This document shows positions 42,237 to 60,812 of a stretch of 64,000 bases of DNA, in pieces. The notes under the pieces were generated by a model. That model had not been told where the DNA came from and made no database searches. It saw nothing but the letters and a program-made list of their open reading frames with translations. The stretch's first letter is position 1; each line of letters opens with the position of its first letter. Both the position numbers and the translations under genes were made by a program. The DNA comes from Candidatus Saccharimonadota bacterium (GTDB lineage Bacteria; Patescibacteriota; Saccharimonadia; Saccharimonadales; AQU-01): NCBI GenBank assembly GCA_018499905.2, contig JAHBAU020000007.1, positions 11,408-75,407 on the forward strand. Reading direction: 5' to 3'.

Positions 42237-43321
42237 TTATTAAACCGAAACTCTACTACATCATTCGGTGACATAATGTAGGTTTTTCCTTCGGTGCGAA
42301 CTTTACCCGCAGCTTTGGCTGCTTGCTCTGAACCGGCGGCGATAAGGTCGTTGTAATCAATCACCTGTGCGGCAATAAAACCCTTTTCAAAATCACCATG
42401 AATAACACCGGCGGCCTGTGGGGCAGTGGCGCCAACTGGAATAGTCCAGGCGCGCACTTCTTTTTCTCCGGCGGTTAAGTAGCTCTGTAGTCCCAAAATC
42501 TCATACGCCGCATGAATCAGCTGCACCAAGCCTGACTCTTTCACGCCGTAACTTTCAAGTAACTCAACTCGGTCACCCTCGTCCAACCCACGAAGTTCAT
42601 CTTCCAGCTTGGCATTGACGAATAAGGCTCTAGCAGGGGACACCATCGTCTGTAGTTCGGCTTGTTTGGCGCTGTCTCCGAGCATCGCCTCATCAACATT
42701 AAACAAATAAATCACCGGCTTAAGGGTAAGTAGCTGCAATTCTTTGCGCAACCACTCGGCCAGCTCGCCCATCATAAACTGCTCGTAGGCCCACAGCGGT
42801 TTGCCGGAATCTAGGGCTTGCTTGGCGCTGGCCAAGAATTCTGCCTGTGGTTTCAGTTTTGGATTGGCACGAGCTTCTTTTTCAATGCGCGGCAAGACTC
42901 GCTCCACCGTTTGCAGGTCCGCCAGCACCAGCTCGGTGTTAATGACGTCAATGTCATGACGTGGGTCTCTAGAAGAATCGCTTCGCAAGACGTCGGCATC
43001 TTCAAATACCCGTACAACCTGAACAATGGCGTTGCAGGTCCGAATGTGGCTCAAAAACTGATTCCCAAGGCCCTCGCCCTTGCTCGCCCCGGCGACAAGA
43101 CCGGCAATATCCACAAAACTGACGGTTGCGGGTTTGATGGGGGCACTACCATATAACTGGCTTAAGCTTTGCAGGCGCTCATCTGGCACCGGCACAATAC
43201 CGGTGTTCGGTTCAATGGTGGCAAACGGATAATTCGCCGCCAAAATGTTGTTGTCTGTCAGGGCATTAAACAGTGTCGACTTCCCAACATTCGGCAGCCC
43301 AACAATCCCAATACTTAGCAT
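42233..43321 (-). CDS. ychF: Ribosome-binding ATPase YchF
   Basis: GIVGLPNVGKSTLFNALT G1 motif, 362 aa, with a TGS-like C-terminus. Confidence 0.95.
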   Translation of the reverse strand: MLSIGIVGLPNVGKSTLFNALTDNNILAANYPFATIEPNTGIVPVPDERLQSLSQLYGSAPIKPATVSFVDIAGLVAGASKGEGLGNQFLSHIRTCNAIVQVVRVFEDADVLRSDSSRDPRHDIDVINTELVLADLQTVERVLPRIEKEARANPKLKPQAEFLASAKQALDSGKPLWAYEQFMMGELAEWLRKELQLLTLKPVIYLFNVDEAMLGDSAKQAELQTMVSPARALFVNAKLEDELRGLDEGDRVELLESYGVKESGLVQLIHAAYEILGLQSYLTAGEKEVRAWTIPVGATAPQAAGVIHGDFEKGFIAAQVIDYNDLIAAGSEQAAKAAGKVRTEGKTYIMSPNDVVEFRFNN

Positions 43322-44969
43322 CTAACCCAACCTGTTCTTGTTTATTTGCTTGTGTTGTGTCTCTTGTATCGCTATGCTCAACATCTAACCCTACCTTGTT
43401 TACAGTTAATGAAGTAGCATATGCTGGTATTTTTCCGCATATTCTTACGTTCTCCTTCGTTGCTATTATTTTATCAACTATTTTCCTCACAGTAAAAAGC
43501 TTGTCCTCGTAGCCCAGATTATTTAGGTACTTCTTGAATGGCTCTACGGAGGTTTCTAGATCAATCTCTCTTAATTGTGCTAACTTATTGGCTTCAGGCT
43601 TATTCATCAAGTCTGTAAGCTCTTTACGGCGTCTGGCGACACTGTTCATCTGGTCTGTATACACAGCTTCTGACATTGTGCCCAGACCCCAAGCTTTAAC
43701 GTAACGGCGTTCTTCTTGTTCAAGTGCTTTGAGTTGCATTCTCAGCTCATCTTTTTTAGGGCTTTGACCTGCTTGTAACTTCTTTTCTTCAGCGTAACGA
43801 TCGAGTTGCTGTTGTAACAGGGTAGGGTCTGTCATCAATTCACAGAGTTTAGCCCAGCCAATAGCATCTAGTACCTGCACATTCACACCAGCCTCAAAGC
43901 AAGTACGAGGCTTAGGGAATTTCAGCAAGCGATCTGTGCAGCGGTAGTAGAAGTGACCGTTCTGACCCTCGCCAGTTCTTGTAGCTCCACAAGGACAAGA
44001 TATTAAACCACCAAAAAGATAGGGATTTTTCTTGAAGCGTTGACTGAGCTTACCGTTGCTTTTAATTTGTGCATTGGCTTTCTGGAATAGCTCATCAGTA
44101 ATGATGCGAGGCACTTCTACTTCAATCCACTCATCACGTGGTCTGGTTTTACGACTGCCTTTTAATGAGTGACGATTCTGATATTTCTTCTGAGTTTTAG
44201 CAGTTGGATTTTTTGTTATCACACTTTCTGACTTGTAGTAGTAGTGTTTGCCAGTGTAAGTTTCATTTTTCAGCATGCGATGCAGAGGACCGTTAGTCCA
44301 AGTATCACGCTTCTGTTTCTTAGGTTGTATACCTAGATCGTATAAGCGACGAATGACCTCTTTAATTGATACACACTCAACACCAATCCACTCAAAAATC
44401 ATTCTTACTACTTTGGCTTCTTCTTCGTTAATCACGAATTGACCGTTGATTTTATCTAAGCCTTTGCCCTTGATCGGAATATAATCATAGCCATAAGGAG
44501 ATTGATAACCCAGCAACTTACCCGAACGTACCTTATTGAGTTTACCAATACGAAAACGTTCTGAAATTTTCATACGTTCGTATTCATGGAATATGCCCAT
44601 TACACCACCCATGAGCTTTTCTTCTGCTGAAATACCGTTAATGTCGTGCAGGCTCTTAAATGTAATTTCTAAATTGGTTAATTCTTCAATGACGATCTCT
44701 TGGTATACATACTTACGGGCTAAACGCCCCTTATCGTAGACATACAAAATATCAAACTTCTTCTCACGTGCATCAGCCCTCATATTATCTAGTGCAGGGC
44801 GTTCAAGTATTGCACCTGACCAACCTTCATCAACATACTCACAGCTTTCGAGAAGGGTATTACCGTCATCAATTATGGCTTTTCGTATTTCAGTTAATTG
44901 GTTTTGTACAGTTTCTTCATCTTTCTGAAGTTCAGTACTTACTCTTGCGTACAGTGCAGCACGTAACAT
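43266..44969 (-). CDS. Large serine recombinase
   Basis: Catalytic N-terminus AALYARVSTELQ, then a recombinase domain and a zinc ribbon (CPCG...YYRC) followed by a coiled-coil-like region. The 3' end overlaps ychF by 56 nt. Confidence 0.9.
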   Translation of the reverse strand: MLRAALYARVSTELQKDEETVQNQLTEIRKAIIDDGNTLLESCEYVDEGWSGAILERPALDNMRADAREKKFDILYVYDKGRLARKYVYQEIVIEELTNLEITFKSLHDINGISAEEKLMGGVMGIFHEYERMKISERFRIGKLNKVRSGKLLGYQSPYGYDYIPIKGKGLDKINGQFVINEEEAKVVRMIFEWIGVECVSIKEVIRRLYDLGIQPKKQKRDTWTNGPLHRMLKNETYTGKHYYYKSESVITKNPTAKTQKKYQNRHSLKGSRKTRPRDEWIEVEVPRIITDELFQKANAQIKSNGKLSQRFKKNPYLFGGLISCPCGATRTGEGQNGHFYYRCTDRLLKFPKPRTCFEAGVNVQVLDAIGWAKLCELMTDPTLLQQQLDRYAEEKKLQAGQSPKKDELRMQLKALEQEERRYVKAWGLGTMSEAVYTDQMNSVARRRKELTDLMNKPEANKLAQLREIDLETSVEPFKKYLNNLGYEDKLFTVRKIVDKIIATKENVRICGKIPAYATSLTVNKVGLDVEHSDTRDTTQANKQEQVGLDAKYWDCWAAECWEVDTV

Positions 44970-45160
44970 TATTTTGTTCCCTTCGTTTTTGTTGTGCGTT
45001 TTGCGATGAATGAATCTAAAGCCTGTTGACTAATACGATAACCCTTACCGAGTTTTACAGCTTCTAGCTCTCCTTTTTTGATGTAGGTTAGGACACTCTG
45101 CCAGTGAAGTTGGAGCAAATCTGCTACGTCCTGTACGGTGTAATATTTTTTGTCTACCAT
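44969..45160 (-). CDS. Excisionase-family (HTH_17-like) DNA-binding protein; candidate directionality factor
   Basis: YYTVQDVADLLQLHWQSVLTYIKKGELEAVKLGKGYRI matches the family. Its stop overlaps the recombinase start as TAATG. Confidence 0.65.
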   Translation of the reverse strand: MVDKKYYTVQDVADLLQLHWQSVLTYIKKGELEAVKLGKGYRISQQALDSFIAKRTTKTKGTK

Positions 45161-45201
45161 AATACTCTCCATTATAAACATTTATAAATAAATATCAATG
45201 A

Positions 45202-45336
45202 CTACTCCTTAGAATCATTTTCTAATTGTTTGAAGTAACGATCAAATAAATAGTTGAACGCTTCTGCAACAGCACTCGTATCACCGTCATCGACGAACTC
45301 GTATTCTATAACTGGTGATACGGGTTTACGTGCCAT
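45202..45336 (-). CDS. Possible 44-aa acidic mini-protein
   Basis: ATG at 45334-45336 lies 4 nt after the primase stop and reads MARKPVSPVIEYEFVDDGD.... It is below the ORF-track cutoff. Confidence 0.25.
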   Translation of the reverse strand: MARKPVSPVIEYEFVDDGDTSAVAEAFNYLFDRYFKQLENDSKE

Positions 45337-45339
45337 TGT

Positions 45340-49232: not shown

Positions 49233-49401
49233 GATGAAATAATTACGGTAATCTTACCCGTTATCAACAGCTAAATCTGGAAAAAAATTTGTAAGCAGTT
49301 GCACTACATTTTTACTGATGTAAAAAGTGAACGACATAACCTCAAATAATATACCCTCTAGGATCTACATAGAGGTCATAAGAGGTGTTTTTGGACAAAA
49401 G
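49233..49401 (+). repeat. Direct repeat copy 1 (about 170 bp)
   Basis: Aligns with 55971-56140. Exact shared runs are aaaaagtgaacgacataacct (21 nt), agaggtcataagagg (15 nt) and acggtaatctta (12 nt). Confidence 0.8.
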
Positions 49402-49505: not shown

Positions 49506-50369
49506 ATGCAAGAAAAACATGATGAAGTCATTGAGGGTGTTGAAAATAATGAACAGAAACCTACCAAAAAGCACAAACTAGGTAAGCGTTCGAAGATAGT
49601 AGTAGCTCTGTTAGTCGTCGCTGTGCTTTTACCTCTATCTTATGCTGGCTATGTATATGCTGCTTCACCTGACGTTATTCGTAAACCCAAGCTAGAACAC
49701 TATCATTTTAGAATGCAGGTATTGGTTGACGGTAAAGCGGAAGACTTTAGTACTCAGGGCTACCAGACAGGCTACGCCAAAGACCAATGTAACGCTAACC
49801 TGCCAGAACAGCCTATTCACTTCCACGACAATAAAGACCAGTTTACCCATATTCACTGGGAAGGCATGACAGGCGGTATGGTTATGAAGTATTACGGTTG
49901 GGACTTTATAGGTGGTATGAAAAATGCACTGGGCTATAAGCTAGATAATCCGAAAGACCCGCAGAAAGTAACCACGCACGGTAACTACCTGCCAGCCATT
50001 CCGAACGATGCAAGGTTCTATATTTATACTGGTGATGAAAATGGCTATCAAGAAAAGAACTTTGAGGATTGGAAAAACCAAGACCTTGAGCAGTTCTTTA
50101 ATAAGACCAGCAACTTCCCAGCTCACGAACAAAACAAACAATCTAGCTTATTAGATAAAGTCTTCCCTAAAGCTAATGCTCATGGCGGCGAAGATGACGG
50201 CAATGATGGTGAGCCTGGCGAAGAAACCGAACAAGAAAAGCTAACTCGTATCAATAATATGGTAGGAAATGTCGTTATTTTTGTGCAAAAAGACAAGCCT
50301 ACCGACCAGCAAATTAAAGAGCGTTTTAATGACCTTGAACCACTTACGGACAGTACATGCGGCGGTTAA
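49506..50369 (+). CDS. Membrane-anchored secreted protein with His motifs
   Basis: N-terminal TM segment. HYHFRMQVLVDGK...PIHFHDNKDQFTHIHWE, then an acidic C-terminus. TATAAT lies 7 nt upstream of the ATG. Confidence 0.5.
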   Translation: MQEKHDEVIEGVENNEQKPTKKHKLGKRSKIVVALLVVAVLLPLSYAGYVYAASPDVIRKPKLEHYHFRMQVLVDGKAEDFSTQGYQTGYAKDQCNANLPEQPIHFHDNKDQFTHIHWEGMTGGMVMKYYGWDFIGGMKNALGYKLDNPKDPQKVTTHGNYLPAIPNDARFYIYTGDENGYQEKNFEDWKNQDLEQFFNKTSNFPAHEQNKQSSLLDKVFPKANAHGGEDDGNDGEPGEETEQEKLTRINNMVGNVVIFVQKDKPTDQQIKERFNDLEPLTDSTCGG

Positions 50370-50695
50370 GCAAAATCACTTTGAAAACATTTGCCACACT
50401 TTTTGTAGGTGTGCTTTTGCTCACTTGCTCATTGGGTGTTTTGTCTTCACACACAGGTGAGGCAAGCCAGCAGAAAGTAAGTTGTAGTTCGTCTTGTCAT
50501 TCTCATGGACAATCAACAGCTATAAACAGTCAAGCTAATAAAGACGAAGATGATAAAGAGCCTACGCCACCACCGTTTAGCTGGTTTCAAATACCCGCCA
50601 ACCTAGCGTTGTTATATGTAATGCCAGTTTTTGGTGTTTTATGGTTCGTTAGTAATAAGCAAAAGATACTACTGACCACGCAACTCAGATTTTGA
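50357..50695 (+). CDS. Small membrane protein with a CxxxC motif
   Basis: Signal/TM segment, CSSSCHSH, an acidic stretch and a C-terminal TM segment. It is a paralog of 56472..56840. Confidence 0.45.
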   Translation: MRRLSKITLKTFATLFVGVLLLTCSLGVLSSHTGEASQQKVSCSSSCHSHGQSTAINSQANKDEDDKEPTPPPFSWFQIPANLALLYVMPVFGVLWFVSNKQKILLTTQLRF

Positions 50696-50740
50696 GATTA
50701 CTTAAGTATCCAGAGTAATTTTAAAAATAAGGAGTTTGTT

Positions 50741-51394
50741 ATGAGCGGTAAAGGATTTTGGATTGTATTAGCGGTAATTTTAATAGGCTTCATTGGTGTT
50801 ATAACCTATACCAAAAAAGATAAAGCGGCAGAGAGTGGCTCAACAGCTAGTTCGCAAGGCTCGCAGAACTATTACGGCAAAATGGATAGCCCCGTTACTA
50901 TTACGGAGTTTGTAGATTTTCAGTGTGAAGCTTGTTATGCCTACTACCCGTATGTTAAGCAAGTAAAAGAAATTTACAAAGACAAAGTACGTTTTCAAGT
51001 ACGTAATTTTCCTATAACATCAGGGCATCAGTTTGCTTTCCAAGCTGCCAGATCAGCGGAGGCTGCTGCACGACAAGGCAAGTTCTGGGAAATGCACGAC
51101 AAGATTTTTGAAGGACAAAAACAATGGGAGCAAACCCAAAACCCACAAAGCTACTTTGATCAATACGCCGAAGATATTGGCTTAGACATGGAAAAATACC
51201 GTACTGATCGTGATAGTTCAGATGTAGCAGCCGTCATCAATAAAGACTTGGCAGATGTGAAAGAAATCGGTGGAACTGGGACGCCAACTTTTGCGATAAA
51301 TGGAGTGAAAGTAGACAAAACAGAGCCTAGTGTAGAAGGACTTTCCAAGATGATTGACGATGCACTTGCAAATCAAGGTGGAAGCAATGAGTAG
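50741..51394 (+). CDS. DsbA-family thiol:disulfide oxidoreductase
   Basis: N-terminal TM segment, active site FQCEACY (CxxC) and a cis-Pro loop GTGTPTF. Confidence 0.8.
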   Translation: MSGKGFWIVLAVILIGFIGVITYTKKDKAAESGSTASSQGSQNYYGKMDSPVTITEFVDFQCEACYAYYPYVKQVKEIYKDKVRFQVRNFPITSGHQFAFQAARSAEAAARQGKFWEMHDKIFEGQKQWEQTQNPQSYFDQYAEDIGLDMEKYRTDRDSSDVAAVINKDLADVKEIGGTGTPTFAINGVKVDKTEPSVEGLSKMIDDALANQGGSNE

Positions 51395-51899
51395 TAAAAA
51401 GAAAACAATACTGTTTTTTCTCCTCCTATTTTTTACAGCCGTAATTACAATTGCAATACAGGCAGCAGTTCAGAGCAGCACCTCAAAAAACGATCAGGAA
51501 AATACCGCTGCGTCTGCTCACGATGAAACAAACAGCGACGGTCATCATAATAGCGACAGTGAAGAATTAGGTGACGTAGTTGATTTGACGAATCAAAACG
51601 AAGTCTCAATGGACATAAAAGATTTTAAGTATGAGAAATCGAACATAAAGATAAAAAAAGGTACGAATGTAACGTGGACTAATCAAGACGAAGTCCAGCA
51701 CAATGTAATGCAAGAACACGAAAACGATAATGACGCTCACGATGCACCGTCTAAAGATGAAGAAAAGCCTGATGTTTTAGCAAGTCGATTGCTATCTAGA
51801 GGAGAAAGCTACAGTTACACGTTCAATGAAGTCAGCACTAGCCCATACCACTGTTCTCCACACCCCTATATGAAAGGCTCGGTAACTGTCGTTGAATGA
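51387..51899 (+). CDS. Amicyanin-like cupredoxin
   Basis: Signal peptide. The type-1 Cu ligand pattern is QHNV...YHCSPHPYMKGSVTV. The start overlaps the dsbA-like stop. Confidence 0.8.
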   Translation: MSSKKKTILFFLLLFFTAVITIAIQAAVQSSTSKNDQENTAASAHDETNSDGHHNSDSEELGDVVDLTNQNEVSMDIKDFKYEKSNIKIKKGTNVTWTNQDEVQHNVMQEHENDNDAHDAPSKDEEKPDVLASRLLSRGESYSYTFNEVSTSPYHCSPHPYMKGSVTVVE

Positions 51900-52593
51900 T
51901 CAAGACTTCTCTAATGTTAATAGCGTAAAAAAGCATAAGATAATTTTTGCGATCGGGGTGTTTCTTGTAGTGGTTTTAATGACTCTGGTTTCTTTACGAG
52001 TAATTTCAAAGATACCTGATACACCAACAGAATCGGTTACTGAGTCTACCACACAAACGCCTAGCAGTGATCCGTTAGCTTCTATGATTCAGCCTGTACA
52101 AGGTGCTGTAGGAGATGAGTTTGATGCGAAATACGTCGAGTTATTATTTGTGCATAATGCAATCAGTACAGCAATGGCTAATTTAGTTAAAGATAGCCAA
52201 GATAAGGAGATTCGAGAATTTGCAGACTATATAATACGCTCAAATGTGGCAAGTAATGAAAAACTTCTTACGTGGTCTAAAGATCTGAAGGCAAGTACTA
52301 GTCCACCGAAACAAACAGACGTAGACACGATTGTTGCAAACCTGACAAGCAATTCAGGTGAGGAGCGGGATCATCAGTTCGTTTTGGATATTATTGACCA
52401 TCTAGCGGGCTCAACAACGTTGTCAAAGTATGCAATATCTAATAGTGACAACAGCGAAATTAAGAATTTTGCTAATCAACTAATTACTGATGAAAGTACT
52501 CAAGCTGAGACTTTTCAAAAATGGGCACGAACCGTCAGTTTCGATAGCGATGACAGACAAACTTTTAACCATGACAAGCATGATAATTATTAA
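51892..52593 (+). CDS. DUF305-like protein with degenerate His motifs
   Basis: TTG start overlaps the cupredoxin stop. It has the two-repeat layout of DUF305, but reads FVHNAISTAMA and IIDHLAGSTTL instead of HHxGA(I/V)xMA. Confidence 0.45.
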   Translation: MNDQDFSNVNSVKKHKIIFAIGVFLVVVLMTLVSLRVISKIPDTPTESVTESTTQTPSSDPLASMIQPVQGAVGDEFDAKYVELLFVHNAISTAMANLVKDSQDKEIREFADYIIRSNVASNEKLLTWSKDLKASTSPPKQTDVDTIVANLTSNSGEERDHQFVLDIIDHLAGSTTLSKYAISNSDNSEIKNFANQLITDESTQAETFQKWARTVSFDSDDRQTFNHDKHDNY

Positions 52594-52704
52594 ATGATGA
52601 GGGGGATAATAACGTGGGTAAGATAAGAATCTTTGTCAGTCTCAATGCACTTTATGAAGATGAAGTAATGTCAGACACTTTAGAGCTAAGGTTGTTGAAT
52701 AAAT

Positions 52705-54042
52705 ATGCCAATTGATACTGATGCTGCAAGGGCTTTAATGGCGGATAGTCTCGGCTTTCATATCATTTTTGCGTTGCTTGGTGTTGGATTGCCATTGGTA
52801 ATATTGCTTATAGAACAGCTTGGGTTACGAAGAAAAGACCCGCTTATTTTAGAGCATGCCAAGCGACTATCTTACGCTACGGTAATCTTGGTTGTTGCAG
52901 GCGTAGCATCTGGTACTATCATTTCAATTCAAATGTCACTAATGTGGGGTAACTTGATTGAGTTCGGTGGCCAAATTATGGGACTTGCTTTCGGTTGGGA
53001 AGGTTACGCTTTTATGTTGGAGGCTGTGTTCCTTGCGTTTTATGTTTCTACCTGGGGTATAATAAAGGGCTGGAAGCATTGGTTGCTAGGCGTACCTGTA
53101 GCTATTGGCTCGTTTGGGTCAGCATTTGCAATTACTCTTGGCAATGCTTGGATGCAGAATCCAGGTGTGCTTAATGTTGTTGAAGGCGTGGTACAGACCG
53201 ACAATCCAGTACGAGAATTGTTCACTAAAACCGCATTCTTTATGGTTAGTCATTCGGTTGCTGGCTATTACCTTGCCACGCTACTGTGCGTACTTGGGAT
53301 TTATGCCTTTTATACATTGAAATTTAAGCCTAGCGGCAAAGACCAAAATGCTGTCAGGCAGATTATGTTTCGTCTGTCGGCTACTGCGGTGTTCTTTGTT
53401 GCTGTTACTGCAGTGCTTGGACACTTCCAGTCGCAATACTTAGCAGAGTCGCAGCCCAGAAAGTTCGCAGCGATAGAACTAAACGAGGAAACTCGTACGA
53501 ACGCACCGTACATTATTGGGGGACACTGGAAAGAGGACGGCACAGTTGAAGGCGGTATTCGTATACCAAATATGCTAAGTATCTTGGCTGGCAACAGTCT
53601 ATCTACGGAGGTTAAAGGTTTACAAGACTTCCCGAAAGATACGTGGCCAATGCTTTTTGTGAATATCTTGTTTGAGTCAAAGTTGCTCCTAGTCGCCATT
53701 GTATCTAGTGTGTCAATTTTGTTTACGGTATTACATTATAAAAGGCTAAACGAAAAGTACCGTGCTTGGCGATACAAAAAACCACTACTTATTGCGTTAT
53801 TGCCGCTCGGTCCATTAACGATAATAATCGTAGAACTTGGCTGGATGGTAGCAGAATTTGGTCGCCAACCATTCGTGGTTAATGGCTATATGCGTACTGA
53901 CCAAGCCTTTTCGGGACAGATAGGCTCATGGGGTTACATATTCCCAATACTATTCGTAGTTCTCTTTATTGTTACCACAATAGCCCTCTGGTTGCTGTTT
54001 AAGAAACAGGGCAAAATTAAACCAGCGAAAGGCTTGCTGTAG
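52705..54042 (+). CDS. cydA: Cytochrome bd-type oxidase subunit I
   Basis: 445 aa. TM1 carries a His (LGFHIIFALLG). GWEGYAFMLEAVFLAFY and FGRQPFVV also match CydA. The Q-loop is short. Confidence 0.8.
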   Translation: MPIDTDAARALMADSLGFHIIFALLGVGLPLVILLIEQLGLRRKDPLILEHAKRLSYATVILVVAGVASGTIISIQMSLMWGNLIEFGGQIMGLAFGWEGYAFMLEAVFLAFYVSTWGIIKGWKHWLLGVPVAIGSFGSAFAITLGNAWMQNPGVLNVVEGVVQTDNPVRELFTKTAFFMVSHSVAGYYLATLLCVLGIYAFYTLKFKPSGKDQNAVRQIMFRLSATAVFFVAVTAVLGHFQSQYLAESQPRKFAAIELNEETRTNAPYIIGGHWKEDGTVEGGIRIPNMLSILAGNSLSTEVKGLQDFPKDTWPMLFVNILFESKLLLVAIVSSVSILFTVLHYKRLNEKYRAWRYKKPLLIALLPLGPLTIIIVELGWMVAEFGRQPFVVNGYMRTDQAFSGQIGSWGYIFPILFVVLFIVTTIALWLLFKKQGKIKPAKGLL

Positions 54043-54560
54043 TGTCTGCCCTCTGGTTCGTTGTCGTGCCACTAATGGTTTACATACCGATGTTTCTAGT
54101 TGAGCTGTATATTGCATTTCGTCGCATCGGTAAGCCATTAGACAAGGGGGGTGAGTATCTTCATGCCACTTGGGAGGCAACCCATACTTTTCTGGTATTG
54201 GCACTCAACTATTTTATGTGGTTATACAGTTCAGCAATAGTTGATGTTGCGAGGTCAGTATTTATCCCGCTCATAATGTTTGGTGCTGTTTTTATTGTTC
54301 GGGCAATCCTGTACATTTACTTGTTCTATATAAAAAAATCTACCAAGCCCAACCTAATAGCGGATTGGGCTTTTGCCTTGTGCCATGTCGTAATGCTTGT
54401 CTGTATAAGTTACGTAACTATTACGACTGCCCAAATACTGCTTGGCGGTGACTATGAATCAAATCACATCCTACTACCATTGTTGTATCCAGGGCTATTT
54501 TTGATGATTCCGCTAGTGAGTGTGCCGCTTTACTTCTTGTACAAGACGAGGGGCAAATAG
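54042..54560 (+). CDS. Small polytopic membrane protein; possible non-canonical oxidase partner
   Basis: GTG start overlaps the cydA stop as TAGTG. At 172 aa and about 5 TM spans it is half the canonical CydB size. ATWEATHTFLVL faintly recalls the CydB WDGNEVWL motif. Confidence 0.35.
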   Translation: MSALWFVVVPLMVYIPMFLVELYIAFRRIGKPLDKGGEYLHATWEATHTFLVLALNYFMWLYSSAIVDVARSVFIPLIMFGAVFIVRAILYIYLFYIKKSTKPNLIADWAFALCHVVMLVCISYVTITTAQILLGGDYESNHILLPLLYPGLFLMIPLVSVPLYFLYKTRGK

Positions 54561-54563
54561 ACT

Positions 54564-55046
54564 ATGGATAGGATCACAATTTTTGCTGCTCAATATTTGA
54601 TATACATAATAGCGATTACTATACTTTTTTACGTATTACTTAGGTTACCAAGAGGCGAACTAAAAACATTTATCACCTTGTGTGGTATGGGCATAGTAGC
54701 GGCATTCATTATGGTTAAGGTAGCTGGAAGCATTTACTACAATCCACGTCCATTTGTAGACGGTAATTTTATGCCATTATTTCCGCACAGCTCTACAAAC
54801 GGCTTTCCTTCAAACCACACAGTAGCGGCAGTTCTGGCTGCGTTATTGTTATGGCGGTATAGTAGAAATGTTGCAGTAGGATTGTTTATCGCTGCATGTT
54901 TAGTTGGACTGGCTAGGGTATTAGCTAGCGTTCATCACATAGAAGACATTATCGGGGGCATTGTCATAGCAACCTTTGCAGCTTTATTCGCTAACCTAGT
55001 ACTTCACCATATTTCGAATCGTAAAGTATCCAAGACAGATAACTGA
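54564..55046 (+). CDS. PAP2-family phosphatase
   Basis: Motifs YYNPRP, PSNH and RVLASVHHIEDI (SR-x5-H-x3-D type). Confidence 0.7.
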   Translation: MDRITIFAAQYLIYIIAITILFYVLLRLPRGELKTFITLCGMGIVAAFIMVKVAGSIYYNPRPFVDGNFMPLFPHSSTNGFPSNHTVAAVLAALLLWRYSRNVAVGLFIAACLVGLARVLASVHHIEDIIGGIVIATFAALFANLVLHHISNRKVSKTDN

Positions 55047-55058
55047 TAGAATTACACT

Positions 55059-55949
55059 ATGGCACACTCACACAAAACAGAAATAAAAGACGGTAGTATA
55101 AAGTTCGGGCTTGTCCTCAACAGTTTGTATACGATAGTTGAGTTTGGCTTTGGTTTATTTACAGGCTCTCTAGCTTTAATTGCCGACGCTACACATAATC
55201 TCACTGATACTTTTACGCTAAGTGTTTCTTATGGTGCTAATCGGCTGGCAAGACGTGAAGCAAACGAGAGCAAAACATTTGGATATGGACGTGCCACAAT
55301 CCTTGCGGCATTACTCAATGCCAGCGTAATGATTGCAGTCGCAGTCTTTATTGCTTTTGAAGCTATACAGCGATTACAGAACCCTGTAGAGATTGAGGGT
55401 GGTATTGTTGCAGCAGTTGCAGCAGTAGGTATAGTGGTGAATGGCTCAATAGCTTATGTGCTGTCAAAGAACCGTAAAGACCTGAATATGCGGAGTGCCT
55501 TTATAGATATGGCATTCGACGCTTTATCTTCGTTTGGAGCAATGATAGCTGGTTTGATTATGTTATTCACAGACATACTGTATGTAGATAGTGTAGTTGG
55601 CTTACTAATTGCAGGACTCTTGCTATACAACACGCTTAAAATACTAAAAGAAGCGGTGCAGATATTACTTGAGGGAACTCCCAAAGACTTAGACATAACA
55701 GCCATCACACAAGCAATAAATGATACAGATAAAGTACTATCAGTTGATGATATGCACGTCTGGACGATACGTTCTGGTTATAACGCACTTAGCTGCCACA
55801 TTGCTATTGATGAAAAAGACCTAACAGAAAGTCGCAATATAGTAGAGTCAGTAAAAGCCAAGCTACGGAATGTACACGATATTCAGCACGCTACTATTGA
55901 AGTTGAGCTAGAAGACTGCACCACACACGAAGAACACGAAAGCCACTAG
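55059..55949 (+). CDS. Cation diffusion facilitator (CzcD/ZitB-like) exporter
   Basis: TM2 has ADATHNLTD and TM5 has IDMAFDAL. A C-terminal cytoplasmic domain and a His-rich tail (HEEHESH) follow. Confidence 0.85.
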   Translation: MAHSHKTEIKDGSIKFGLVLNSLYTIVEFGFGLFTGSLALIADATHNLTDTFTLSVSYGANRLARREANESKTFGYGRATILAALLNASVMIAVAVFIAFEAIQRLQNPVEIEGGIVAAVAAVGIVVNGSIAYVLSKNRKDLNMRSAFIDMAFDALSSFGAMIAGLIMLFTDILYVDSVVGLLIAGLLLYNTLKILKEAVQILLEGTPKDLDITAITQAINDTDKVLSVDDMHVWTIRSGYNALSCHIAIDEKDLTESRNIVESVKAKLRNVHDIQHATIEVELEDCTTHEEHESH

Positions 55950-56149: not shown

Positions 56150-56179
56150 TTGACTAATACCCCTAGGGGGTATTAAGAT
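56150..56179 (+). promoter_or_regulatory. Promoter with an embedded CsoR-type operator
   Basis: TTGACT at 56150-56155 and TAAGAT at 56174-56179. The perfect palindrome ATACCCCTAGGGGGTAT (56157-56173) fills the spacer. The ATG lies 6 nt after the -10. Confidence 0.6.
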
Positions 56180-56185
56180 AATTGT

Positions 56186-56470
56186 ATGAGAACTGACATC
56201 AAAAAACGGGCAAGCCACCGCACTAAGATTATTGAAGGCCAGATCAAGGGCTTGCAGAAAATGATTGATAACGAAGACTATTGCATGGACATACTGACTC
56301 AAAGCCTTGCTATTCAGAAGTCACTCTCCTCTCTTAATAAGCTAGTTTTAGAAAATCATATAACCACTCACATCACTGATATGCTTGCTTCTGGAAAAGA
56401 AAATGAACAAACAAAAGCTCTGGATGAACTTATGAAACTTTACGAGCTTAATAACATTAGGGGTAAATAA
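56186..56470 (+). CDS. CsoR/RcnR-family metal-sensing repressor
   Basis: RTKIIEGQIKGLQKMI...DYCMDILTQSLAIQ...ENHITTHI. The ligand positions read Cys33, His58 and His62. Confidence 0.85.
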   Translation: MRTDIKKRASHRTKIIEGQIKGLQKMIDNEDYCMDILTQSLAIQKSLSSLNKLVLENHITTHITDMLASGKENEQTKALDELMKLYELNNIRGK

Positions 56471-56471
56471 C

Positions 56472-56840
56472 TTGAAGCACCTATTCGCCCTTAAGAACAT
56501 AGCCGTAATAGTTGCGGTATTGTTTCTAAATTCAGTAGCTTCTTTAGCTCACACTTCTGCAATGCCAGCAATGACGCATGAGGTGAATGGTGGTATGAAG
56601 TACAGCTCAAGTGATTCTGCCTCGTGTGCCACGCTGTGCCGAACAGCCGTGCTTAATAAAGATGAATCTATAGATTCTGATTATGACGAAGAAAATGATG
56701 AACCTGCCGTACCTTTCTATTTGCTTACCAAAGCTGAGCAGTTTAACGACAACACAGTAAACCAAAAGATATATGCAGAATCCGTAAAGCCACCACCTAA
56801 GATACCGATATATATTCTCTACGGTGTCTTTAGGGTTTAG
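56472..56840 (+). CDS. Small secreted/membrane protein with a CxxxC motif
   Basis: TTG start 2 nt after the csoR-like stop. Signal segment, CATLC and an acidic stretch. It is a paralog of 50357..50695. Confidence 0.4.
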   Translation: MKHLFALKNIAVIVAVLFLNSVASLAHTSAMPAMTHEVNGGMKYSSSDSASCATLCRTAVLNKDESIDSDYDEENDEPAVPFYLLTKAEQFNDNTVNQKIYAESVKPPPKIPIYILYGVFRV

Positions 56841-56889
56841 GATTCGTTCTACGCTTTAACGACATTCTTAAATTTAATCTGGAGAACAT

Positions 56890-57570
56890 ATGAAAAAGAA
56901 TAAAAGTAATAAGAACAACATCATTGTAGTGGCGATTGTCGCCATAGTAGCGATAGCAGGAGTCAGTATCTATGCTATGAGTAATGATGATGGGATGATG
57001 GGCGACAACAATATGATGGGTAATAACTCATCACAACAAGCAAGTTCAAGCAGTCTCGTAGACAAGAACTCAGCTGAATACAAAATGTACATCGAACTTA
57101 CTAGTGATGACTATGACCGTATGTTTATTGCCAATATGATTGAGCATCATAAGGGTGCTGTCGACATGGCAGAACTAGCGTTAACCAATGCAAAACACCA
57201 AGAGCTAAAAGATATGGCTAATAACATCATAGCGGCTCAAAGCAAAGAAATAACAAACATGGAAGCTTGGCAGAAGGATTGGGGATACCCAAGTAGTAGC
57301 GGTGAGATGATGATGGATCACTCGGCAATGGGTATGATGGCTGATATGGGTCAAATGACTGAAGAGCTAAAGAGTTTAACGGGCGATGCTTTTGACAAGG
57401 CTTTTTTGGCTTCAATGATTGAGCACCACCAGTCGGCAATAAATATGGCTTACCCAGGTCAGACAAATGCTAAGCACGATGAGGTAAAAACATTAACACA
57501 GGCAATCGTAGACGCTCAGAGTAGTGAAATTGCCCAGATGAGGCAATGGCAAAAAGACTGGGCTTACTAG
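56890..57570 (+). CDS. DUF305-family protein (canonical)
   Basis: Signal/TM segment. Two repeats read FIANMIEHHKGAVDMA and FLASMIEHHQSAINMA. The N-terminal region is Met-rich. Confidence 0.8.
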   Translation: MKKNKSNKNNIIVVAIVAIVAIAGVSIYAMSNDDGMMGDNNMMGNNSSQQASSSSLVDKNSAEYKMYIELTSDDYDRMFIANMIEHHKGAVDMAELALTNAKHQELKDMANNIIAAQSKEITNMEAWQKDWGYPSSSGEMMMDHSAMGMMADMGQMTEELKSLTGDAFDKAFLASMIEHHQSAINMAYPGQTNAKHDEVKTLTQAIVDAQSSEIAQMRQWQKDWAY

Positions 57571-57581
57571 GTTAAAGTACT

Positions 57582-59600
57582 ATGGACCATTCTCAACATG
57601 AACACCACCGAACGGAGCATCAGGAGCACGACAAACATGCTGGTCATTCAGTAGCAATGTTCAAAGATAAGTTCTGGTTGTCATTGTTACTAACTATACC
57701 CGTGCTCATATATAGCGAAATGATACAGCACTGGCTCGGCTTCACGCCACCAGCATTTCCTGGCTCGCAATATGTGCCGTTTGTGTTTAGTACCATCATC
57801 TTTTTCTATGGCGGAATTGTGTTCATAAAGGGTGCTATTAGTGAGCTAAGGGCTAGATTGCCAGGGATGATGACACTTATCAGCTTGGCAATTATCACAG
57901 CCTACGCATACAGCGTTGCTACACAGTTCTTCATTGACGGAGAGGGTTTCTTTTGGGAACTCGCAACCCTAGTAACAATTATGTTGCTAGGGCACTGGCT
58001 AGAAATGGCTTCAGTCGCAAAAGCTGAGAATGCCCTAGACGCAATATCACAGTTGCTACCTGACAAGGCAGAAAAGCTAGTCAATGGCAAACCAAAACAA
58101 GTGTTAGTTAGTGAGCTTAGTGTTGGTGACTTAGTACTAGTACGTCCAGGAACAAGAATACCGATTGACGGTGTAATAACAGACGGTAGCTCATCGATTG
58201 ATGAAGCGGCTATTACAGGTGAATCAAAGCCTGTAAGTAAGACAGTTAATGATGAGGTTGTTGCAGGTACAGTGAATCAGGACGGCTCAATAACAGTGAA
58301 AGTTACCAAGCTAGGAGACGACACAGCACTAGCAGGAATTATGCGACTAGTTGCCGAAGCCCAAAGCTCAAAATCTAATGTTCAAGTGCTGGCGGATAAA
58401 GCAGCTTTTTACCTAACGATCATAGCTATAAGTACTGCTATTGTTACTTTCGTTTACTGGTTGGTTGCTAAAGATATGAATTTCGCTCTAGAACGAGCCG
58501 TTACGGTACTAATTATTGCTTGTCCTCACGCACTTGGTTTGGCGATACCTCTAGTTGTATCAATATCAACTGCATTATCAGCAAAGAATGGATTACTCGT
58601 TCGTAAAAGACTGGCTCTTGAATCAGCACGTAAATTAGATTGGGTGCTATTTGACAAGACTGGCACACTGACTAGAGGCGAACACGGCGTTACAGACATA
58701 TGGGCTACAAAAGGCTATAACAAAGAAGACATAATCCATCTCACTGCAAGCCTTGAGCAAAACAGTGAACATATTGTTGGTAAAGGCATTGTACGAAAAG
58801 CCGAAGAAGACCATATTCATCTAGATAAAGTAACCAATTTTAAGGCTTTGCCAGGTCTAGGCGTGCAAGGTTCTCTACATGGTAGTGAAGTGTATATTGC
58901 AGCCAGCTATCGATACGTTGAAGAAAACAAGCTAACAGTTCCTGCTGACATAGCTAAAGTAGTTAAGCAAGCTGCAGAAGAGGGCAAAACAGAGGTTTAT
59001 CTGATAAAAAATAATAAAGTTGTTGGAGCATTAGGATTAGCCGACATAGTACGTGAACAATCTAAGCATGCCATAAGAACACTCAGAGAAATGGGTATTA
59101 AGACAGCTATGATTACAGGTGATTCTGATGAGGTTGCAGCATATGTATCAAAGCAGCTTGGCTTGGACCAGTACTTTGCAGAGGTTAGACCAGAAGACAA
59201 GGCTGCCAAGGTAAAGGAATTGCAGAAAAATGGACAAAAAGTCGCTATGGTAGGAGATGGTATCAATGACGCACCAGCCCTTACACAAGCAGACATAGGC
59301 ATAGCTATTGGTGCGGGTACTGATGTGGCTATTAAGTCGGCAGATATTATTCTCGTAAAAAGCGATCCCCAAGACGTAGTAAAGGTAATAAACCTATCAA
59401 AAGCTACGTATAGGAAAATGAGCCAGAATCTAGTTTGGGCTACTGGTTATAACGTCTTTGCGATACCTTTGGCTGCTGGTGTGTTGTATGGAGCTGGCAT
59501 AGTGCTTGCCCCTGCACTTGGAGCAATCCTAATGTCGGTTTCAACAGTTGTTGTAGCAATAAACGCACAATTACTTCGCAAAGCAAAGCTTAGTTCATAA
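57582..59600 (+). CDS. copB: P1B-type ATPase, CopB-like (CPH motif, His-rich N-terminus)
   Basis: N-terminus MDHSQHEHHRTEHQEHDKHAGH. TM6 CPH at 58521-58529, DKTGT at 58653-58667 and GDGINDAP. Confidence 0.9.
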   Translation: MDHSQHEHHRTEHQEHDKHAGHSVAMFKDKFWLSLLLTIPVLIYSEMIQHWLGFTPPAFPGSQYVPFVFSTIIFFYGGIVFIKGAISELRARLPGMMTLISLAIITAYAYSVATQFFIDGEGFFWELATLVTIMLLGHWLEMASVAKAENALDAISQLLPDKAEKLVNGKPKQVLVSELSVGDLVLVRPGTRIPIDGVITDGSSSIDEAAITGESKPVSKTVNDEVVAGTVNQDGSITVKVTKLGDDTALAGIMRLVAEAQSSKSNVQVLADKAAFYLTIIAISTAIVTFVYWLVAKDMNFALERAVTVLIIACPHALGLAIPLVVSISTALSAKNGLLVRKRLALESARKLDWVLFDKTGTLTRGEHGVTDIWATKGYNKEDIIHLTASLEQNSEHIVGKGIVRKAEEDHIHLDKVTNFKALPGLGVQGSLHGSEVYIAASYRYVEENKLTVPADIAKVVKQAAEEGKTEVYLIKNNKVVGALGLADIVREQSKHAIRTLREMGIKTAMITGDSDEVAAYVSKQLGLDQYFAEVRPEDKAAKVKELQKNGQKVAMVGDGINDAPALTQADIGIAIGAGTDVAIKSADIILVKSDPQDVVKVINLSKATYRKMSQNLVWATGYNVFAIPLAAGVLYGAGIVLAPALGAILMSVSTVVVAINAQLLRKAKLSS

Positions 59601-59629
59601 GTAGAATACGTCGTTGGTGGCATTAAAGT

Positions 59630-60361
59630 TTACTGAATAGGCTTAGCACTACGCTTACTATCTACATTAAAATGCCACACATCGTCATGTTCATACCTTG
59701 CAAGTGCAATGGTAAGATTAGGTGCAGTTGGCTTACTAAGATATATGACTCTTGCAATATCTAATGCTGGTAGTTGATACCAGACTACGTATACATCCGC
59801 AAATACCTCTATTGCTTGTTTTGCACCCTTGCGGATTCCTTCAATCTCTATCTCACCTGCTTGACTGTATATATTTACAATCAATGCACAGTTATCAGGA
59901 TAATCAGCACGCCTAGCAGCCTTCTTGTTGATTTGTGTAATTACGTGAGCATTGCTTACCTTTGTTGCTGGAAAATAGCCCTGCACCATTACCTGCTGGA
60001 CAAGCATTTTTGCGTGAGCTTGATCATGCCATATAGCACCGTCTGATAATACATTTTCAGTCTGAGCCTTTGCAGAATCTTCAATACCTACGAAGGCTTG
60101 GTAAGTGTTTTTTGTACCTGCTTGCTCTGCAACCCATTGATAGTACGAAACAACAGCTCCAAGACCCATTAGCTCACCTGCGTTAAGGTCGATGGTTGTA
60201 CCGCTTGCAAAATTCGCTGGCAAATCAATTGAGTTTAATTTAGCAATGGGACGATTATTGAGCAGTAAGCTTATCTTGTCTTTCGTAGACTTACCGTCGT
60301 ACATACCTAAGACTATCTTAATTGCGTTATCTGGGTGTAGACCAACTCCATCAAAATTCAT
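59630..60361 (-). CDS. Hypothetical protein (243 aa)
   Basis: Clear ORF convergent with copB. No motif recognised. Confidence 0.45.
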   Translation of the reverse strand: MNFDGVGLHPDNAIKIVLGMYDGKSTKDKISLLLNNRPIAKLNSIDLPANFASGTTIDLNAGELMGLGAVVSYYQWVAEQAGTKNTYQAFVGIEDSAKAQTENVLSDGAIWHDQAHAKMLVQQVMVQGYFPATKVSNAHVITQINKKAARRADYPDNCALIVNIYSQAGEIEIEGIRKGAKQAIEVFADVYVVWYQLPALDIARVIYLSKPTAPNLTIALARYEHDDVWHFNVDSKRSAKPIQ

Positions 60362-60458
60362 ACTAACAGTATACTGCTAATCAGTGGAGCGTGGCTTGGC
60401 CATGGCCAAGAATTAGCGTTGTGGTATGGAGTATTAAATATAGTGGTGAGTGTGGTGG

Positions 60459-60540
60459 GGTAGCAAAAATCTGGGAAAAAAATTTTCGCAGGGTTACCAA
60501 CCTATATTTTGGGCAAAAAGATGAAAGAACATATTCCTGA
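60459..60540 (+). repeat. Degenerate third copy of the island repeat
   Basis: aaatctgggaaaaaaatt and caaaaagatgaaagaacata align with the core of copies 1 and 2, at roughly 60 percent identity by eye. Confidence 0.45.
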
Positions 60541-60544
60541 GTAT

Positions 60545-60745
60545 TTACCACTTACCGCCAGCAGTTTCTTGTAGTTCTTTGATCTGTTGAGGAGTGTAGC
60601 CACGTGTTCTTTTATCTAGTGGAGGCATCAAGAAGGTTATATCGAATGGTATGGTTGCGTCTTGTGAATACCAATAGATAAGCTCATAGGTGTGCATTAT
60701 ATCCGACAAATCCTCTTGGGTACATTGAAGTGTTTGCAAAATCAA
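60545..60745 (-). CDS. Hypothetical small protein (66 aa)
   Basis: AT-rich ORF at the presumed right end of the island. No motif recognised. Confidence 0.3.
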   Translation of the reverse strand: MILQTLQCTQEDLSDIMHTYELIYWYSQDATIPFDITFLMPPLDKRTRGYTPQQIKELQETAGGKW

Positions 60746-60812
60746 TGTAATTGTCAGGATTCGTTCATAAATCAGTTGCTATACTAGAGGATAATTAGCA
60801 TAAGTAGAATCT

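Follow-up and report, generated by a model that had tools for sequence, protein, structure and literature searches.

The ychF Locus

The DNA described here, called the window below, is a stretch of 64,000 nucleotides from a Candidatus Saccharimonadota bacterium (assembly GCA_018499905.2, contig JAHBAU020000007.1). It contains an integrative element that is found inside the coding sequence of ychF. The element carries the gene of a large serine recombinase (LSR), a set of small backbone genes, a primase gene and two cargo operons with copper and redox genes (Table 1). All 20 open reading frames (ORFs) were compared to Pfam, the backbone proteins and the ORFs lacking a Pfam match were compared to PHROGs, and partly overlapping subsets were compared to NCBIfam and PADLOC.

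The element differs clearly from its surroundings in composition. The GC content is 0.406 for the element (43,304-60,666) and 0.487 for the remaining window, and the GC values of 1-kb windows from element and host are fully separated, with an element maximum of 0.442 and a host minimum of 0.448 (Mann-Whitney p = 1.5e-9). The tetranucleotide distance between element and host is 0.311, while equal-size host chunks differ by at most 0.114, about one third of this value. Both profiles agree with a first-pass annotation, made from the sequence alone, in which the DNA was said to become more AT-rich from ychF rightwards. That annotation also placed an insertion at the start of ychF. An element of 17.4 kb is indeed present there, but within the coding sequence rather than ahead of the gene, and the earlier bounds of 43266 and 60780 are replaced by junctions at 43,308/43,309, within codon 6 of ychF, and at 60,670/60,671. 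Position 43,266 is the stop codon of the recombinase gene and is located in host DNA, while the 110 bp from 60,670 to 60,780 contain the native ychF promoter and the first seven codons of the gene.

The first-pass annotation implied that relatives with an empty site should exist, and such a site is present in the close relative L097 (JGI 3300043411), which was reached via a YchF protein search and a contig look-up. In L097 the genes encoding a response regulator, a histidine kinase, YchF, a bPH_3 protein and Crp are contiguous and found in this order, with the histidine kinase gene adjoining ychF. When the flanks of the window are joined without the element, they give a single collinear match of 5,784 bp to L097, with 78% identity, that crosses the junction. 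The host proteins of the two contigs are 88-97% identical, and YchF is 89-90% identical in two comparisons. A YchF protein 100% identical to that of the window is found in a metagenome-assembled genome named 'Candidatus Saccharibacteria bacterium' at NCBI, and the best genome matches are Saccharimonadales; the earlier guess of a Patescibacteria-like host was thus correct. Four relatives from the genome collection (L001-L004, YchF 66-73% identical) have ychF with its own promoter and no recombinase gene, but their kinase side lacks synteny, and they are therefore not decisive. A search of metagenome_contigs for loci related to the histidine kinase gave only matches of 26-31% identity and no empty site, a look-up of the exact histidine kinase protein of the window gave no record, and a look-up of the bPH_3 neighbor gave only contigs of 1.2-1.6 kb, all ending short of the junction. 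The same species is present in SRR14479781, SRR14479782 and SRR29782972. Scans of the whole window for tRNA genes and Rfam families found none, and the element is thus not a tRNA-targeting island.

Table 1. Positions within the window of the element, its genes and its sites (aa, amino acids; HTH, helix-turn-helix).
Feature	Position	Strand	Remarks
Integrative element	~43,308-60,670		17,363 bp with GG counted once; within codon 6 of ychF
Rebuilt ychF, 362 aa, MLSIGIVGLPNVGKS...	42233..43321	-	ORF list; YchF starts of relatives
LSR, integrated form, 567 aa	43266..44969	-	Pfam Resolvase, Recombinase, weak Zn ribbon
attL core ATTGGGATT	43304..43312	-	Inferred crossover dinucleotide GG 43309-43308; attL/attR comparison
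Degenerate second copy of attP left arm	43368..43396	-	63 bp upstream of active arm (43305-43333); direct repeat D7, 79% identity; codes VGLDVEHSD...
HTH_17/excisionase-family DNA-binding protein, 63 aa from ATG 45160	44969..45160	-	Pfam HTH_17 1.7e-12; TIGR01764 43.1 bits (cut-off 28.8)
Promoter-like site TTGATA-16-TATAAT	45171..45198	-	11/12 consensus match; before HTH_17, LSR, ychF
Conserved mini-ORF, 44 aa	45202..45336	-	Homologous 39-45-aa ORFs at same place in L084, L100, L102, L104, L106
DnaG-like primase, 729 aa	45340..47529	-	Cys/His zinc-finger-like motif and Toprim; uncharacterised C-terminal domain
Small protein, 96 aa	47514..47804	-	Weak DUF5659 match, 21.7 bits (cut-off 23.6)
Backbone orphan, 262 aa	47994..48782	-	Conserved 47-52% in L100, L106, L084
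Divergent HTH protein, 76 aa	48878..49108	+	Weak HTH_28, HTH_7 and small-terminase-like matches
Direct repeat, ~170 bp	49233..49401 and 55971-56140	+	79-80% identity (D1, D3, D5); one copy upstream of each cargo operon
Cargo operon 1	49506..55949	+	287-aa and 112-aa orphans, DsbA-like thioredoxin (Thioredoxin_4), cupredoxin, DUF305, cytochrome bd subunit I homologue, 172-aa partner, PAP2, CDF pump
CsoR-type operator, perfect 17-bp palindrome ATACCCCTAGGGGGTAT	56157..56173	+	csoR (operon 2) promoter, between -35-like and -10-like hexamers
Cargo operon 2	56186..59600	+	CsoR/RcnR-family repressor, 122-aa orphan, DUF305, CopB-type P1B ATPase
Orphan at element right end, 243 aa	59630..60361	-	Downstream of stranded ychF promoter
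Inverted repeat, 25 nt, 92% complementary	60437-60461 and 45368-45392		Arms in tail-stop/243-aa-orphan spacer and primase 3' end
Detached recombinase tail ORF SQDATIPFDITFLMPPLDKRTRGYTPQQIKELQETAGGKW	60545..60670	-	In frame with LSR once attP is re-formed; stop 60,547-60,545
attR core ATTGGTATT	60675-60667	-	GG 60672-60671
attR with native ychF 5' end	60667..60703	-	TATAAT -10 60703-60698; ATG 60687

Attachment Sites and the Rebuilt ychF Gene

At the right end of the element the attR promoter and gene start are nearly identical to those of the uninterrupted site in L097. The minus strand from 60,687 to 60,667 reads ATG AGC TTA TCT ATT GGT ATT (MSLSIGI), the first seven codons of native ychF. 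When this remnant is joined to the host part of ychF, the start MSLSIGIVGLPNVGKS is obtained, which is the YchF N-terminus found in relatives, where a -10 box lies 7-10 nt upstream. The right-end sequence is thus the original ychF promoter and 5' end, meaning that the element sits within ychF. The present start at 43,321 reads ATG CTA AGT ATT GGG ATT GTT GGG CTG CCG (MLSIGIVGLPNVGKS). Its ATG together with codons 1-5 and two further bases (43321-43308) derives from the element, and the remainder of the gene is host DNA. As the left end of the element supplies a new ATG and five codons, ychF stays intact.

The two ends of the element have only the sequence ATTGGKATT in common, and there is no long terminal duplication. 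The att sites were compared for four family members: the window element, L104, where both ends are visible, and L084 and L085, where the recombinase gene is unintegrated. Only one dinucleotide occurs in every att site of these four elements: GG, the first two bases of the Gly-6 codon. It is the top-scoring dyad center in three of the four attP sites (12, 20, and 14 of 24 positions symmetric, L104 having 20), while it is second-ranked in L084 (10/24). We infer that the crossover takes place on GG, at 43,309-43,308 and 60,672-60,671. Serine integrases require a non-palindromic crossover dinucleotide, and GG qualifies. A crossover on AT (43306-43305) was also considered, since the attB of L097 has GGT, and was rejected: the attP of L084 lacks this AT, AT is palindromic, and the dyad axis falls on GG. 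The attB is thus found at the Gly-6 codon of ychF, in the sequence ATT-GG|N-ATT-GTT-GG..., and the predicted joints are ...GCTAAGTATTGGTATTCACAAGACGCAACC... for attP and ...GAGCTTATCTATTGGGATTGTTGGGCTGCC... for the reconstructed empty attB.

The left arm of attP is dual-coding. In the recombinase frame it encodes VGLDAKYW, and in the ychF frame it reads ATG-CTA-AGT-ATT-GG. The motif VGL[DNH]AK, which is conserved in the LSR family, is when shifted by one base the replacement start of ychF, (stop) ATG/GTG-CTA-AGT-ATT-GG. Through recombination the element comes to lie between codon 5 of ychF and the remainder of the gene, and the native promoter and seven codons are stranded 17.4 kb away, at attR. 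This stranded promoter is now directed into the tail ORF described below and the 243-aa orphan.

The left arm of attP is duplicated inside the 3' end of the recombinase gene, where the two copies encode VGLDVEHSDTRDTTQ...QEQVGLDAKYW. The second copy is found in one subfamily of homologues, in free as well as integrated forms, and is absent from the relatives of 538-546 aa and from P0022 and P0025. It also resembles the start of the right arm, and hence looks like an older attP.

The Large Serine Recombinase and its Family

The N-terminal, resolvase-type catalytic domain of the LSR, with its serine nucleophile (PF00239, Resolvase, 1.5e-26), covers residues 4-151, and R9-V10-S11-T12 are invariant in 19 family members. 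The Recombinase domain matches PF07508 (6.8e-18), while the zinc ribbon (PF13408) scores 17.5 bits against a cut-off of 25.3, with C325, C327, C344, and C357 being invariant. The best PHROG match is to an integrase (2.9e-82). An AlphaFold model of the homologue P0040, built on 32 sequences and with a mean predicted local distance difference test (pLDDT) score of 72.5, was compared to structures of SPbeta-type, phiC31, and Bxb1 integrases, including cryo-EM structures, and matched these with E-values from 5e-18 to 7e-14. The model displays the usual domains of serine integrases, with long helices at residues 379-451. The window enzyme has the domains, the fold and the att sites of large serine recombinases, and cleavage is predicted. 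In mechanistic terms the element is an ordinary serine-integrase element.

There are 756 homologues of the LSR at E <= 1e-20. The top homologues share the sequence ...VGL[DNH]AK[YH][WR], which is followed by short and variable C-terminal peptides. These peptides are the ychF codons for I-G-I-V-G-L-P-N-V-G-K read one base out of frame; in the window they correspond to the last 14 codons of the LSR (43307-43269). Among the 120 best homologues (46-92% identity), 112 end with a codon-degenerate signature of ychF read in the shifted frame. The 9-residue core of this signature is found within the C-terminal 60 aa of 87 of these 120 proteins, but in none of 2,400 random internal control segments. Two of the eight homologues without the signature carry the recombinase tail instead of it. 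In L100, L102, L104, and L105 the LSR gene is directly seen to adjoin ychF. With 112 of 120 homologues ending in frame-shifted ychF, the LSR family as a whole targets the ychF site. One member is labelled Nomurabacteria by its source, which shows that the family reaches beyond Saccharibacteria within Patescibacteria. Scans of IMG/VR with the recombinase and with the family alignment gave no relatives.

attP Within the Recombinase Gene and the Detachable Tail

When the left and right ends of the element are joined at the crossover, the LSR ORF gains 40 codons, so that the free form would have 595 aa vs. 567 aa for the integrated form. The joining shows that in the circular form attP would lie within the 3' part of the recombinase gene, and that integration costs the LSR a conserved tail of about 40 residues, which is replaced by 14 out-of-frame ychF residues. 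The motif of the tail is PF[DE]xxxxMPPxDxxxRGY[ST]. Two homologues of the LSR, P0040 (55% identity) and P0091 (47%), end in similar peptides, ...QQPFELKLTMPPTDRGGRGYSDEY... and ...LPFELTANMPAYDSPGGYSKEF..., respectively. In their contigs, L084, L085, and L086, the recombinase gene is followed by element genes and not by ychF, and the tail is fused in frame. No terminal overlap was found in these three contigs, of which L084 and L085 are short. L104 carries the tail peptide, ...LPFEIHFLMPPTDRGRRGYS..., at attR, where it follows the ychF remnant and is separated from the recombinase gene by 10.5 kb.

When these four tails are compared in pairs, codon position 2 is mostly the best conserved, and position 3 varies most in five of the six pairs. 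The conservation extends 40-85 bp past the crossover, while a normal attP is about 50 bp. The codon-position pattern and the conservation beyond a 50-bp attP indicate that the tail is constrained as a peptide and not as a DNA site. With a profile made from the four tails, 81 short proteins were retrieved. Of these, 59 were new; about 21 are C-terminal LSR fragments with the tail in frame, and about 38 are ORFs of the attR type, where the prefixes (NEFIYWY, YELIYRY...) are the out-of-frame ychF remnant. The new sequences come from Saccharibacteria and Patescibacteria contigs of up to 1.3 Mb. The tail peptides matched no Pfam family. In the model of P0040 the linker encoded by attP (513-533) is disordered, and the tail consists of one strand (534-542) followed by one helix (555-566), with pLDDT 65-74. 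It is an internal motif of the tail that is conserved, and not its extreme C-terminus.

There are two subtypes of tails. The window subtype recurs almost unchanged in elements (P0249) with a recombinase body that shares only about 46% identity with the window LSR, which implies that element halves are exchanged at the att site. In L106 (8349-20480) two related elements are found in tandem at ychF. The recombinase gene of the upstream element is split into ORFs of 387 and 159 aa and has retained the tail at an attP-like joint, while the downstream element has the backbone of the window element and a different cargo. At the level of sequence, this tandem is evidence that elements accrete and that their halves are swapped at att sites.

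The tail swap makes the LSR differ between the free and the integrated state, which probably biases the direction or the stability of recombination, with HTH_17 or the mini-ORF as the probable excision cofactor. It is a tentative and rather doubtful suggestion that the detachable tail is a built-in sensor of the integration state that sets the direction of recombination. The free circle would then encode a tailed LSR, with the tail tethered by the disordered linker. The tail would either enable synapsis of attP and attB, or mask in cis the site where the co-expressed HTH_17 or mini-ORF cofactor would bind, and integration could then proceed despite the presence of the cofactor. After integration the gene would be cut at attP, and the tail-less enzyme together with the same cofactor could only excise. 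If this is true, a minimal element could control direction with one constitutive operon, which the host could not silence since the same operon drives ychF. The arrangement would also explain that tails and cargo sides are exchanged between very different LSR bodies, as for P0249, and that tandem arrays such as L106 are formed.

Relatives and Mobility

A constant backbone is found across the relatives, consisting of the genes for the 76-aa HTH protein, the 262-aa orphan, the DUF5659-like protein, the primase, the mini-ORF, HTH_17 and the LSR. The variable cargo is found in the region between attR and the 76-aa HTH gene. The window element and that of L100 carry copper and redox genes, L106 carries an ADP-ribosylglycohydrolase set, and L104 carries methyltransferases and an M78/HTH pair, while L102 (467-1756) contains a pair resembling a diversity-generating retroelement, an RVT_1 reverse transcriptase and bAvd. 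L085 (5047-8975) is a distant, GC-rich and unintegrated member that encodes an S24 LexA/CI-like repressor, a Fic protein and an Mrr-like nuclease. It may represent a phage-like or differently regulated branch of the family.

The element proteins of the window and L100 are 89% (LSR), 92% (HTH_17), 85% (primase), and 88% (CydA) identical, and the DsbA-like protein, the CDF pump and the 287-aa orphan are about 80% identical. Their host proteins are less similar, with 69% identity for YchF and 64% for a flanking host gene. That element proteins are 80-92% identical when YchF is only 69% identical, while the closer host L097 lacks the element, points to horizontal spread among divergent Saccharimonadales and not to vertical descent.

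No genes for capsid, terminase, portal, tail or lysis proteins were found in the Pfam and PHROG searches, and the phage-type PHROG matches are confined to the integrase, the excisionase, the primase and the weakly small-terminase-like HTH protein. Among the 20 ORFs there was no match to relaxase, VirB4, VirD4, TraG or type IV secretion families in Pfam and the NCBIfam subset; an oriT may still be present. The absence of capsid, terminase, relaxase and type IV secretion genes noted in the first-pass annotation is thus borne out by searches with hidden Markov models (HMMs), and a compact integrative, possibly replicative, island fits better than a prophage or an integrative and conjugative element. 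The annotation had reached this conclusion too, and it is now supported by the empty site, the sharp shift in composition and the lack of structural and transfer genes. The element would move between cells without machinery of its own, for instance by natural transformation or with a helper.

Backbone Genes and Expression

The gene list of the first-pass annotation, with a minus-strand operon, divergent orphan and HTH genes and two metal/redox modules, agrees with the results from Pfam, PHROGs, and NCBIfam. The stop codon of the HTH_17 gene overlaps the start of the recombinase gene, and the gene adjoins that of the LSR in L084, L100, L102, L104, and L106. Its likely start at 45,160 comes directly after the promoter-like site and gives a protein of 63 aa, as in L100. 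HTH_17 is a candidate directionality factor or autoregulator, and the conserved mini-ORF is another candidate for a recombination directionality factor. The core of the promoter, aaatgtttataat, is conserved in L100 and L084, and has one change (aaatgcttataat) in L102. No terminator-like site was found on the minus strand between this promoter, at 45,171, and ychF, and the start of ychF overlaps the end of the recombinase gene by 56 nt on the same strand. It is most likely that ychF is transcribed from the element promoter (45198-45171) together with HTH_17 and the LSR.

The primase was earlier proposed to be a primase-helicase. The zinc-finger-like and Toprim parts are seen (Toprim_2 7e-12; PHROG DNA primase 3e-26), and PDB matches are confined to the Toprim region. 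The C-terminal 430 aa carry a Walker-A-like APSSTGKT motif, but beyond Toprim no match was found in Pfam, PHROGs, NCBIfam, PDB or plasmids, and the label helicase is therefore not established. The DnaG-like primase is a candidate replication protein, with which the excised element would replicate.

The gene of L102 found at the same position as that for the 96-aa protein has a precomputed DUF5659 match. The 76-aa HTH protein is 88, 75, and 49% identical to its counterparts in L100, L106, and L084, respectively. Neither the 262-aa nor the 243-aa orphan matched any family in Pfam, PHROGs, NCBIfam or PADLOC, and PADLOC gave nothing significant for the orphan proteins. For the 25-nt inverted repeat the rough chance expectation is ~4e-4. 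The pair is conserved in L106 (10487-10511, 19144-19166) and absent from L104 and L084. In the circular form its arms could be found on one long transcript, and they could represent a replication origin, pair as RNA or bind a protein.

Copper and Redox Cargo

The genes of operon 1 are found in the same order in L100, except for DUF305, which is absent from L100, and most of the proteins are 61-88% identical, while PAP2 is 43% identical. The CydA homologue (445 aa) has a match of 4e-92, while its 172-aa partner matches CydB below the cut-off (24.1 vs. 35.6 bits), and the scores of the cytochrome bd pair against the NCBIfam equivalogs are far below the cut-offs. In this pair (52705-54560) the place of a full subunit II is thus taken by a membrane protein of only 172 aa, and the two proteins are 88 and 81% identical in L100. 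The cytochrome bd homologue is found in an organism not expected to respire.

The operon 2 proteins match Trns_repr_metal (PF02583, 1.7e-22), DUF305 (6e-42) and E1-E2_ATPase (1e-51). The P1B ATPase scores 590 bits against the TIGR01511 copper ATPase, and resembles CopB-type pumps in its CPH motif and His-rich N-terminus. For the CsoR-type operator the chance expectation is 0.09 matches even when three mismatches are allowed. By these features operon 2 is a predicted CsoR-regulated copper efflux operon. The sensor residues of the repressor are C33/H58/H62 (x-C-H-H) and not the copper-type x-C-H-C, hence the copper specificity of the repressor is not proven. The ~170-bp repeat found upstream of each operon could be a shared regulatory region or a scar of cassette-like cargo acquisition. 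The most likely joint role of the two operons is protection of the cell envelope from copper and oxidative stress.

Alternative Explanations

The element is with high confidence a non-phage, non-conjugative, LSR-driven element of 17,363 bp that belongs to a large Patescibacteria family targeting the P-loop-coding 5' end of ychF. A phage satellite, similar to the phage-inducible chromosomal islands (PICIs), would also lack transfer machinery of its own. It would be excised and replicated by its primase upon infection with a helper, and be packaged in helper capsids, and the 76-aa HTH protein would be small-terminase-like or regulatory. The family size of 10-17 kb, the integrase gene at one end, the primase-type gene and the divergent small HTH regulators fit such a satellite, as do the S24 LexA/CI-like repressor of L085 and the weak small-terminase matches of the 76-aa HTH protein (PHROG 2.4e-5; Pfam Sf6_terminase 0.0022, below cut-off). 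However, a complete small terminase is longer than 76 aa, and generic HTH families match the same region. In addition, no genes for capsid morphogenesis or packaging interference were recognised, no relatives are found in IMG/VR and no helper phage is known, and the cargo is metal resistance and not the phage-interference or virulence genes typical of PICIs, all of which make a satellite unlikely. It is extremely unlikely that the element is a decayed prophage or an old immobile island that is inherited vertically. Between the window and L100 the nucleotide divergence of the element is similar to that of the host, a degenerate second attP arm is present, and the recombinase gene of L106 is broken in two; all backbone ORFs of the window are nevertheless intact and the tail ORF at attR is still open, the closest host relative is without the element, the element proteins are far more alike between hosts than YchF, and no phage structural genes were found.

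The tail might also not be a part of the recombinase, but a separate small gene or a DNA-level site, an extended right arm of attP, that is in frame by chance. The first eight or so tail codons do overlap the right arm of attP, and gene callers annotate ORFs of 47-90 aa at attR in integrated copies. These attR ORFs, however, lack a conserved start codon and begin with ychF sequence read out of frame. In every copy with an intact attP the tail is in frame with the LSR without any stop codon, across bodies 46-57% identical to that of the window, and both the reach of the conservation beyond the attP and the variable third codon positions speak against a DNA site. A separate origin of the tail is therefore quite unlikely, and it is best seen as the C-terminus of the free recombinase.

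Some observations weigh against the proposed mobile element and its mode of action. The circular form of the window element is a reconstruction and does not come from reads of the organism itself, and L084 and L085 could derive from tandem arrays and not from free circles. An exact 25-mer search for attB in metagenome_contigs and an exact search for the attP joint in viral_contigs both gave 0 matches. At the nucleotide level the identity between the window and L100 is 70-79% for the element and 66-80% for host genes, meaning that the transfer is not very recent and that the argument for horizontal transfer rests on the protein identities. HTH_17 is encoded in the same operon as the recombinase, which is unusual for a separately regulated directionality factor, and no helicase or initiator domain is demonstrated in the primase-like protein. 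The role of the tail is a prediction, and the transcription of ychF from the element promoter is predicted from geometry alone.

Comparison with Known Systems

SPbeta inserts in spsM, and the skin element is found in sigK. The Listeria phage A118/phi10403S inserts in comK by means of a serine integrase (PMC3556126). Like these three, the window element encodes an LSR, has its short attB within a coding sequence and its crossover on 2 bp, and lacks long repeats at the ends. The insertions of A118, SPbeta, and skin break the gene, which is restored by excision, while the window element brings a start codon and five codons and leaves the gene intact without its own promoter. The three are also phages or phage relics, while the window element has no virion genes.

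The staphylococcal cassette chromosome (SCC) elements, such as SCCmec, are found at the 3' end of rlmH in Staphylococcus, encode CcrAB pairs or CcrC, and have their att sites outside the recombinase genes. Like these, the window element is a non-phage, non-conjugative resistance island that an LSR inserts at the end of a conserved housekeeping gene. The best NCBIfam match of the window LSR is CcrB, but with 97 bits against a cut-off of 900 it is not a Ccr.

The integrase of mycobacteriophage BPs is a tyrosine recombinase. BPs and its relatives display integration-dependent immunity, where attP is found inside the repressor ORF and the tail lost upon integration is an ssrA-like degron (PMC4557955). 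This is the closest conceptual parallel for an attP inside an ORF: in both cases the free and integrated C-termini differ, and a sensor of the integration state would be built in. BPs splits the repressor, however, while the window element splits the serine recombinase itself, and the BPs tail is a terminal degradation tag, while the tail described here has its conserved motif internally and a non-conserved extreme C-terminus.

The SSV1-type integrases of Sulfolobus fuselloviruses are tyrosine recombinases that target tRNA genes, and their attP is found inside the integrase gene, which is cut into two large parts. Integration partitions the integrase gene in both systems, but the window LSR only exchanges a tail that follows the domains, and the catalytic and DNA-binding domains remain. 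The element phiRv1 of Mycobacterium tuberculosis, reportedly described by Bibb and Hatfull in 2002, is said to be a small LSR element with an excisionase-type directionality factor. It is prophage-like and inserts in the repeated REP13E12 sequence, and its attP is not known to be inside int. Nor is its Xis gene known to share an operon with int. The window element shares with phiRv1 the small size and the combination of an LSR with a small excisionase-type HTH protein, although HTH_17 is only a candidate for this role.

In Streptococcus pneumoniae a prophage remnant is found beside ychF, and its int-proximal end influences the expression of ychF; the remnant has a tyrosine integrase and its attB is in the intergenic region upstream of ychF (PMC8637289, citing Chen et al. 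2019). As described there it rebuilds no part of ychF, unlike the window element, and it is thus a loose parallel for control of ychF by a neighbor. A literature search across 7.7 million full texts gave no description of this family, of a serine integrase targeting ychF or of an attP within a serine integrase gene, and this absence is not proof of novelty.

Implications for Saccharibacteria

The element is notable for its conserved target in a universal gene, for a dual-coding end that rebuilds this gene and for the detachable recombinase tail. To our knowledge the mobile elements of Patescibacteria, or bacteria of the candidate phyla radiation, have barely been described. The sequences point to a widespread family, with hundreds of homologues and with defined attP, attB and crossover. 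Among divergent Saccharimonadales it moves cargo that includes copper and redox genes, a diversity-generating retroelement and methyltransferases. ychF is among the most conserved bacterial genes, and genetic tools for Saccharibacteria are scarce. With the P-loop-coding start of ychF as attB, the recombinase and its ~50-bp sites are obvious candidates for a site-specific integration tool in these bacteria. The attP in the serine integrase gene and the conserved tail further offer a testable idea for how direction may be controlled without separate regulation of a cofactor, which should be of interest for the engineering of serine integrases.

YchF is a redox-regulated ATPase that is reported to restrain the translation of leaderless mRNA under stress (PMC8138138). 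As the insertion replaces the ychF promoter, the element may rewire a host stress regulator besides adding resistance genes.

A -10 box is found only 5-10 nt before the ATG at several places, in the window (60698-60687, 45176-45160, 56175-56186) as well as at the ychF starts of L001, L004, L007, and L097. This short spacing suggests that leaderless mRNAs or mRNAs with very short leaders are used in these Saccharimonadales, which is of interest given the reported effect of YchF on leaderless translation. In the host part of the window, the bPH_3-domain gene (41607..42236, plus strand) and ychF on the minus strand are convergent, and their ends overlap by 4 bp (42233-42236); the same arrangement is found in L097.

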